Assembly (NCBI GenBank): GCA_951406725.2
Contig: OX597819.1
Location: 121,024,001-121,088,000 of the forward strand
Origin: Octopus vulgaris
Taxonomy: Eukaryota
Direction: 5' to 3'
DNA length: 64,000 nt
The position numbers were made by a program, and so were the translations under genes. Each line of letters starts with the position of its first letter. Position 1 is the first letter of the stretch. The notes under the pieces were generated by a model. That model made no database searches. It was given only the letters and a program-made list of their open reading frames with translations, and was not told where the DNA came from. Positions 59,601-60,639 of this stretch are shown here, in pieces.

Positions 59601-59785
59601 TAGAAACACATATACCACACACACACACGCACACACACACACACACACACACACACACACACACACACACACACACACACACACACATATATATATATAT
59701 ATATATATATATATATATATATATATATATATTGAAAAAAGTCAATGTAGAAAATTCTAACATAATTTTATAAAAACCATTTCAT

Positions 59786-59829
59786 AAAAATATGGAAAGC
59801 TTCACGAATTTGCGTGTCATCCTTGCACA
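59786..59829 (-). pseudogene. U6: Inverted copy of U6 snRNA 3' end (~44 nt)
   Basis: Reverse complement reads tgtgcaaggatgacacgcaaattcgtgaagctttccatattttt. Confidence 0.92.
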
Positions 59830-59830
59830 T

Positions 59831-59936
59831 GTACTAGCTACGGTGGTACATATTCTAGAATTGGAACGTTAGAGAGAAGATTAGCATGGTCCCTGCGCAA
59901 GGTTGACACGCAAATTCGTGACGTGTTCCACATTTT
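59831..59936 (+). pseudogene. U6: Full-length U6 snRNA pseudogene
   Basis: gtactagctacggtggtacatattctagaattggaacgttagagagaagattagcatggtccctgcgcaaggttgacacgcaaattcgtgacgtgttccacatttt. The ACAGAGA box is mutated to AGAGAGA, and there is no room for an upstream promoter. Confidence 0.93.
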
Positions 59937-60639
59937 ATTTAAAATTATTTTAGATTTCCTACCTTGACTTTTTTCCATACATATCAACTCGTGTGTTCCG
60001 TTTGAGCCTTCTAAACACACACACACACATACATATATATACGATGGGATTTTCTCAGTTTCCGTCTACCAAATCCACTCACAAGGCTTTGGTCGGCCCG
60101 AGGCTATAGTAAAAGACATTCGCCCAAGGTGCCACGCAGTAGGACGGAACCTGGAACCATGTGGTTGGAAAGCAAGGTACTTACCACACAGCCACTCCTG
60201 GTATCATGTACATATGAATGCATGTATGTTTGACATTGTTCAGTTTTTTTTCAAGATTTCCTGTCGACGAGGAAAGAGCTGGTTTCTAACCTCGATCCAA
60301 GCCTCCTTCACTGGAACAGGATATTTTGCATGTGCTTGCGTATATGTGCAGTATTTCGAGCCACTGCAAGTGCATAATTAATAATTGTGCATTTTGTTTT
60401 AGGTACGTATTCTCATGCATATATTTGCATGTCTAGACATACGCATATATACTTAAATGATAAACTTCTGGAAAGTTTTACAGACCTTTACAGTTCCAGT
60501 GATGGTTTGGATCTACCCGAATGTAAAACTGGATCCCCAATTTCATTTGGCAGATTGGAGATATTTTTGTGAAGATTGTTATTCAGTGGCTGGCACTTAT
60601 ATGACTAGTAGAGTTTCTTCAAAATTTGATTATATTTGA

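Follow-up and report, generated by a model that had tools for sequence, protein, structure and literature searches.

A head-to-head U6 snRNA unit in Octopus vulgaris suggests insertion by Penelope-like machinery

How does a complete U6 snRNA come to lie directly behind an inverted copy of its own 3′ end, inside the microsatellite of a SINE? This question is raised by a 245-nt unit near the end of the window, that is, the whole 64-kb stretch of Octopus vulgaris DNA that was analysed. On the plus strand, a U6 was identified at 59831–59937 (Rfam model positions 1–105, 94.2 bits, E = 5e-23), the only U6 in the 64-kb window to reach the gathering score. Directly upstream, 59786–59836 on the minus strand is a partial Rfam U6 match (34.4 bits, E = 8e-5), under the gathering score of 44. 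A sequence-only reading had described a complete U6 right after an inverted copy of its own last ~44 nt, and on this the Rfam matches and the alignment of the two arms agree: pairwise alignment of the reverse complement of 59733–59830 with 59893–59977 gives 72 identities over 84 aligned columns. A long hairpin is predicted by folding for 59725–59985 (z = −9.7; as stable in 0 of 200 shuffles).

The symmetry of the arms continues past the U6, with a local score of 55 against a maximum of 38 in 20,000 shuffles and a best score of 33 elsewhere in the 64 kb. The ~40-nt symmetry reported earlier is therefore real, but its length needs correction, as the extension of the inverted arm measures ~53 nt and that of the forward arm ~41 nt. 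The inequality is due to one 13-nt indel between two T runs, which separates the arms and had been overlooked.

Read from left to right, the unit begins with the longer, inverted copy of the 3′ extension (59733–59785, minus strand; T runs of 5, 4 and 6), followed by an inverted, 5′-truncated U6 comprising positions 64–107 (59786–59829, minus strand), which has two differences from intact U6 in 44 nt. A single base at the head-to-head junction (59830) is part of neither arm; here position 63 differs from intact U6. The full-length, decayed U6 then starts at +1 and is followed by the forward copy of the extension (59938–59977, plus strand), which matches nothing else in the window and none of the 111 U6 loci surveyed below. 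Beyond it lies a 34-nt one-sided extra (59978–60011, plus strand), likely to be the ‘tail’ of a Penelope-like element (PLE), the right boundary of which merges into (CA)n. The T run closing the U6 has five Ts in the inverted arm, four in the forward arm and five in a second locus, L004. A+T accounts for 82 % of the extension, which has several T runs; A+C makes up 44 % of the tail, which is not AC-rich, and the tails of this unit and of L004 fold no better than shuffles. Inspection of the sequence found neither poly(A), as had been noted before, nor a LINE tail. Within the 245 nt, no hammerhead was found by Rfam at gathering score or by motif scan, and there is no RT or GIY-YIG ORF. Since the inverted arm sits upstream, with microsatellite beyond it, the U6 copy has no room for a promoter of its own; it thus combines a start at +1 with the absence of a promoter, as U6 retrocopies do. 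This copy is a dead, promoterless, passive scar without evident function.

An assembly or library fold-back was considered and ruled out in view of the 12 mismatches in 84 positions and the 13-nt indel between the arms. Differences from intact U6 were counted against an invertebrate U6 from the survey (locus L018). The forward U6 differs from it at 13 of 107 positions, among them 42 (in the ACAGAGA box) and 73, and some of the differences in the 5′ stem may be species differences. Over positions 63–107, eight differences from intact U6 are present, three in the left arm only (junction base included) and five in the right arm only, with none in common. The template of both arms was therefore a working U6, and each arm then decayed on its own; late inversion of an already decayed pseudogene is ruled out by the absence of any shared difference (0/8). 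Arm divergence is 14 % (12/84), or ~7 % for each arm, and the host SINE differs from the local majority by 14.5 % (63/435); these figures fit an insertion later than that of the SINE. For 25 sampled words of the locus in a sequencing-run index, the shares were 0.64 and 0.36 under species label A (one study) and 0.48 under species label B (three runs from three studies), against 0.08 in the other 11 rows, which were left out of account; this is only an indication that the locus of the unit is shared.

Comparison with other copies in the window shows that both flanks are halves of one SINE copy, with the unit inside its internal (CA)n(TA)n tract. The 3′ half, assigned to family B in the sequence-only reading, lies at 59377–59614 on the minus strand (79–85 % identity to other window copies) and the 5′ half at 60042–60200, also on the minus strand (84–87 % identity to the closest other copies). 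The minus orientation was deduced partly from a short tandem repeat at the same end of other copies, and partly from features that we take to be typical of this SINE family. The insertion target is the internal (CA)n and then (TA)n microsatellite at 59615–59732, of which ~22 TA units directly adjoin the left end of the U6 unit. As (TA)n is common across the window, this target carries low weight. The unit had earlier been placed next to (TA)n in a SINE; this is correct for the left end, but at the right end the 34-nt extra intervenes and had been overlooked. The extra occurs on the right side only and is missing from all eight other SINE copies aligned. The remaining SINE microsatellite (60012–60041) matches family D3 at 96 % over 27 nt of low-complexity sequence. 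From its sequence, this segment repeats the (CA)n–(TA)n step seen to the left of the unit and is possibly the remnant of a target duplication; no target duplication of the unit can be distinguished from the surrounding microsatellite. No tRNA was found by ARAGORN in the SINE heads. At 3470–4030 in the window, a SINE copy has a ~100-nt internal tandem duplication across its microsatellite.

Other palindromic units are present in the window. With simple repeats masked, there were 19 local inverted-repeat rows, nine of which were inspected, together with a unit at 5219–6112. These fall into two kinds, one with 3′ ends outward at (TA)n and one centred on a TA repeat. The first kind is represented by 5219–6112, 55474–55746, 11331–12181 and 52520–52786, and the U6 unit shares its layout. 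At 52520–52786 the order is (TA)n, arms, a 35-nt one-sided extra and (TA)n again, and 55474–55746 has a sub-threshold match to the type I hammerhead (Rfam, 23.8 bits, E = 0.0013; gathering score 34). No target duplication was found at the units at 749, 11331, 39183 and 54803, and one of 7 nt is present at 55478. In the TA-centred palindromes at 41523–41598 and 61758–61815, pieces of the same SINE are duplicated in inverse orientation around a central TA repeat, which suggests that they arose as DNA-level fold-backs at (TA)n. These count against a PLE origin of the U6 unit, as they show that non-PLE fold-backs occur in the window.

Some of the repeats have further features of their own. The 5219–6112 unit is young, lies between (TA)n tracts and consists of a partial tandem and an inverted copy with arms 98 % identical; its two outer ends stop ~55 nt apart in the sequence of the unit. 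A hammerhead-like motif in it (5834–5877), found by motif, has no Rfam hammerhead match and was rejected. The 11331–12181 and 55474–55746 units are related head-to-head units with minimal hammerhead-like motifs, and in the former the arms are separated by ~550 nt of mostly unrelated, (GAT)n-rich sequence. AT-rich palindromes with microsatellite flanks are found at 52520–52822 and 37645–37799. A dispersed element of ~210–250 nt occurs between (TA)n tracts at 38298–38542, which has a degenerate hammerhead-like motif at 38389, and also at 55890–56140 and ~6125–6335.

A scan of public metagenome contigs with a U6 5′ motif, covering 28 of the 64 parts of the collection, yielded 111 loci from an estimated ~280. 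The motif favours near-intact, full-length U6, and most of the 111 loci look like real genes. An inverted arm could be sought in the 98 loci (80 distinct) that include 60 nt or more upstream, one of which, L004, has the same layout as the window unit. Its inverted arm (286–387) consists of U6 positions 75–107 and a 71-nt extension, with a 2-nt overlap at U6 +1. The arms are identical at 101 of 102 positions and the U6 scores 116 bits. The forward arm alone continues into an extra 37 nt, and both arms lie between the two copies of a 12-bp direct repeat (275–286 and 600–611), for which the chance probability is ~3e-5 within 120 sites. There is no T run in the L004 extension, which resembles neither the window extension nor the sequence flanking the other U6 loci fetched (best local score 21). 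Searches for relatives of this extension and its tail gave none, or single chance matches, and the terminus is one that we take to resemble an insect PLE end. A gapped U6-palindrome pattern had no match in the metagenome contigs; it is too narrow to match L004. Two further candidates, L035 and L104, were dropped as their inverted matches are only 12–13 nt.

The survey also contains U6 loci of other kinds. Right after the U6 in L079, L102, L046, L074 and L098 the sequence presumably represents LINE/SINE DNA, which it resembles, and these are possible invertebrate U6/LINE chimeras. In L056 a 10-nt direct repeat surrounds the U6 and ~19 nt. In 11 of the fetched loci (L009, L012, L026, L052, L053, L069, L076, L099, L103, L106 and L111) the U6 is broken at ~69–70 and continues into other sequence. 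U6 position ~69–70 is the site of the Dada-U6 transposon (PMC8869645). The inverted arm of the window unit also ends near this site, and that of L004 ends at 75, away from it.

The source of the window extension was sought in several ways. Extension and tail have no second copy in the 64-kb window by blastn and no match in the 111 U6 loci. Short motifs taken from them did not occur in the consensus files of Naiad, Chlamys and Hydra, one chance 9-mer excepted, and the 3′ ends of the cephalopod PLE consensus sequences inspected look different from the extension by eye. The end of the 52520 unit resembles the U6 unit weakly: 43 of 3,000 shuffles did as well with extension and tail together, and 518 of 3,000 with the tail alone; an earlier figure of 1 in 2,000 shuffles was obtained in a hand-picked frame. 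The sequence common to both window arms passes three T runs of 5–6 and continues past the last of them into the tail. Such T runs stop RNA polymerase III. Among real U6 flanks, another T run of at least 5 occurs within 55 nt in 23 of 58 distinct intact loci, and two occur in five of the 58. A 3′-extended, read-through U6 RNA, one of the templates first proposed, is therefore not favoured: it would have three T runs of at least 5 to pass, and the L004 extension has neither a T run nor a match to a flank of the other U6 loci fetched. For these reasons, a U6 joined to the 3′ end of another RNA fits better. The other early proposal, a U6-headed non-autonomous family, has no support, as the window and L004 extensions differ and no second copy was found in the 64-kb window.

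The reading preferred here, with a probability of about one half, is that a chimera of U6 and a PLE end was inserted in one event by a PLE reverse transcriptase and endonuclease. Taken over all readings that use one, a PLE enzyme is the probable inserter. The insertion in PLE style suggested at the outset has gained support from the head-to-head arms, the join at +1, the (TA)n target, the one-sided 34-nt extra and the absence of shared decay, and from L004, an independent locus that repeats this layout and is enclosed by a 12-bp target duplication. It is further favoured by the other units of this layout in the window, at 55474–55746 and 52520–52786. In both loci, the window unit and L004, the join is exactly at U6 +1, which points to an RNA template, whereas a PLE enzyme is indicated by the inverted arm, the tail on one side and the duplication around the whole.

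In such an event, a mature U6 ending in its U run would be joined to a short RNA carrying the PLE reverse-transcription start sites, by ligation or by template switch, as in U6/L1 chimeras. The PLE enzyme would cut both strands of an AT-rich target and extend both. One strand would be extended from the outer start site to U6 +1, giving the arm with the tail, and the other from the inner start site, halting at U6 position 64; head-to-head joining of the two extended strands would follow. As in both loci one and the same junction of U6 and extension is crossed by both arms, they would come from a single pre-joined template, or one arm from the cDNA of the other.

A more specific version of the joining step involves RtcB. 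Hammerhead cleavage leaves a 5′-OH. RtcB might thus ligate a cyclic-phosphate-ended U6 to the 5′-OH piece of a PLE hammerhead, with the PLE enzyme copying the chimera into both arms, a version that is doubtful as it stands. In the 55474–55746 unit, the distance from the predicted hammerhead cut to the arm end is ~52 nt against the ~53-nt extension of the U6 unit, with no homology found between them; the agreement in length is compatible with this version but does not speak for homology.

Retaining the PLE enzyme, the template might have been a read-through transcript of a real U6 gene, the extension and tail being its downstream flank. The junction common to both arms would then be explained without a joining step, and an extension that is 82 % A+T with T runs is like many real flanks (23/58 with a further run of at least 5) and has no match to any window repeat. 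However, the polymerase must cross three T runs of 5–6 and then at least 34 nt more, and the L004 extension, lacking a T run, is unlike the flanks of the fetched U6 loci (best local score 21). In addition, the PLE protein tested depends on a motif of its own RNA (PMC11167929), and the host genes that Penelope mobilised carried pLTRs (PMC3846280). On balance a read-through template is unlikely, although it is the strongest of the rivals. The PLE-aided insertion of one copy of a U6-headed non-autonomous family, with a PLE end behind a transcribed U6 as master locus, is improbable. Non-autonomous PLE derivatives are known (PMC8557442; bioRxiv 10.64898/2026.07.22.740005), and a master locus would explain the common junction; against this, there is one copy in the 64-kb window, the L004 extension differs and the window copy has no upstream promoter. 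U6 depends on an external promoter, and the window copy is therefore unable to make new copies.

An origin without any PLE has also to be weighed, namely a LINE-made U6 retrocopy or chimera in which the inverted arm arose by twin priming, fold-back or early DNA repair. LINE-made U6 copies are the common kind (PMC4476161), TA-centred fold-backs are present in this window, and an inversion that took place with the insertion, or shortly after it, would likewise leave the arms without common differences. A cut by a transposase is conceivable as well, as the inverted arm ends at approximately the Dada-U6 target (PMC8869645), but the L004 arm, ending at 75, is off this site. The unit has no poly(A) or LINE tail and is flanked by (TA)n rather than centred on it. 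Twin-primed snRNA copies, as described in PMC4476161, are 3′-truncated and paired with L1, and their 3′ end is not duplicated. From a LINE or from repair one would expect neither that two unrelated loci each carry an extra on one side (34 and 37 nt) nor that a duplication encloses both arms of L004. Such an origin is thus rather improbable, and insertion of a U6/PLE-end chimera by the PLE enzyme is retained as the preferred reading.

U6 chimeras serve as markers of LINE activity, and the window unit and L004 suggest that Penelope-like enzymes make them too. On the basis of these two loci, it is likely that PLEs, besides LINEs, pick up U6 and insert copies of it in genomes. If the joining event is rare, the presence of the same rare U6 junction in both arms means that they come from one template molecule, or one from the cDNA of the other. 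The position of the U6 junction is directly comparable with the cut site of a PLE hammerhead, and if the two coincide the junction would be a trace of cleavage in vivo. Were the RtcB/hammerhead version true, U6/PLE chimeras would recur across animals, would mark where the hammerhead cuts in vivo and would barcode the template shared by both arms.

In vertebrates, U6 is found joined at its T run to L1, L2, RTE and SINE RNAs (PMC4476161; PMC6789731), and RtcB joins cyclic-phosphate-ended U6 to RNAs with a 5′-OH (PMC6789731). The window unit is like the U6/LINE chimeras in having a full-length U6 from +1, a run of 4–6 T and other sequence directly after it, and in being a dead, dispersed copy. 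Those chimeras, however, are collinear single units with a LINE 3′ tail, whereas the window unit duplicates its 3′ part in inverse orientation upstream, has no poly(A) and carries a tail on one arm. Of what would mark its downstream part as a LINE or SINE 3′ end, poly(A) is lacking and no match to the window repeats was found. The twin-primed snRNA/L1 inversions (PMC4476161) likewise have an inverted snRNA on the 5′ side of the insertion, but this is a 3′-truncated snRNA facing L1, whereas the inverted piece in the window lacks its 5′ part and is a second copy of the 3′ end of the forward U6. The words ‘Penelope’, ‘Poseidon’ and ‘Neptune’ are absent from the main text of PMC4476161. No chimera of U6 or another snRNA with Penelope was found in titles and abstract openings, a cover that leaves most subscription papers and Repbase entries outside.

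Among PLEs, Pen2a_Av shows the anatomy also seen in L004: an inverted pLTR lies next to it, one end bears a 31-bp tail and there is a 9-bp duplication. Head-to-head is the most frequent arrangement, and Penelope in Adineta moved host genes in trans, which lie between pLTRs (PMC3846280). Naiads have an inverted 5′-truncated copy, a 30–40-bp tail and a (TA)n bias (PMC8557442), and a preference for (TA)n is listed for Naiad and Hydra families of cephalopods (PMC8557442 supplement). At AT-rich DNA, the PLE protein of a lizard (PAc), in purified form, cuts both strands and extends them, beginning at two internal sites that mark the limits of the tail (PMC11167929). How the inverted arm forms, and the role of the hammerhead, are still unsettled (PMC8557442; PMC11167929). 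Unlike PLE insertion units, the U6 unit has no ORF, hammerhead or proven pLTR, and its body is a host snRNA; in contrast to the Adineta host genes between their pLTRs, the U6 units would hold at most a 50–70-nt 3′ end. Non-LTR retrozymes are likewise short non-coding units thought to depend on the PLE enzyme, but they consist of tandemly repeated units, each bearing a type I hammerhead (bioRxiv 10.64898/2026.07.22.740005), and the U6 unit shows neither feature. The likeness to PLE insertions lies in the layout. The window unit and L004 both have an inverted 5′-truncated copy at the 5′ end, with 3′ ends outward, and a tail within the 30–40-nt range at one end (34 and 37 nt), alike by position and length, not by homology; the window unit adds the (TA)n or AT-rich target, and L004 alone the target duplication of ~9–12 bp.
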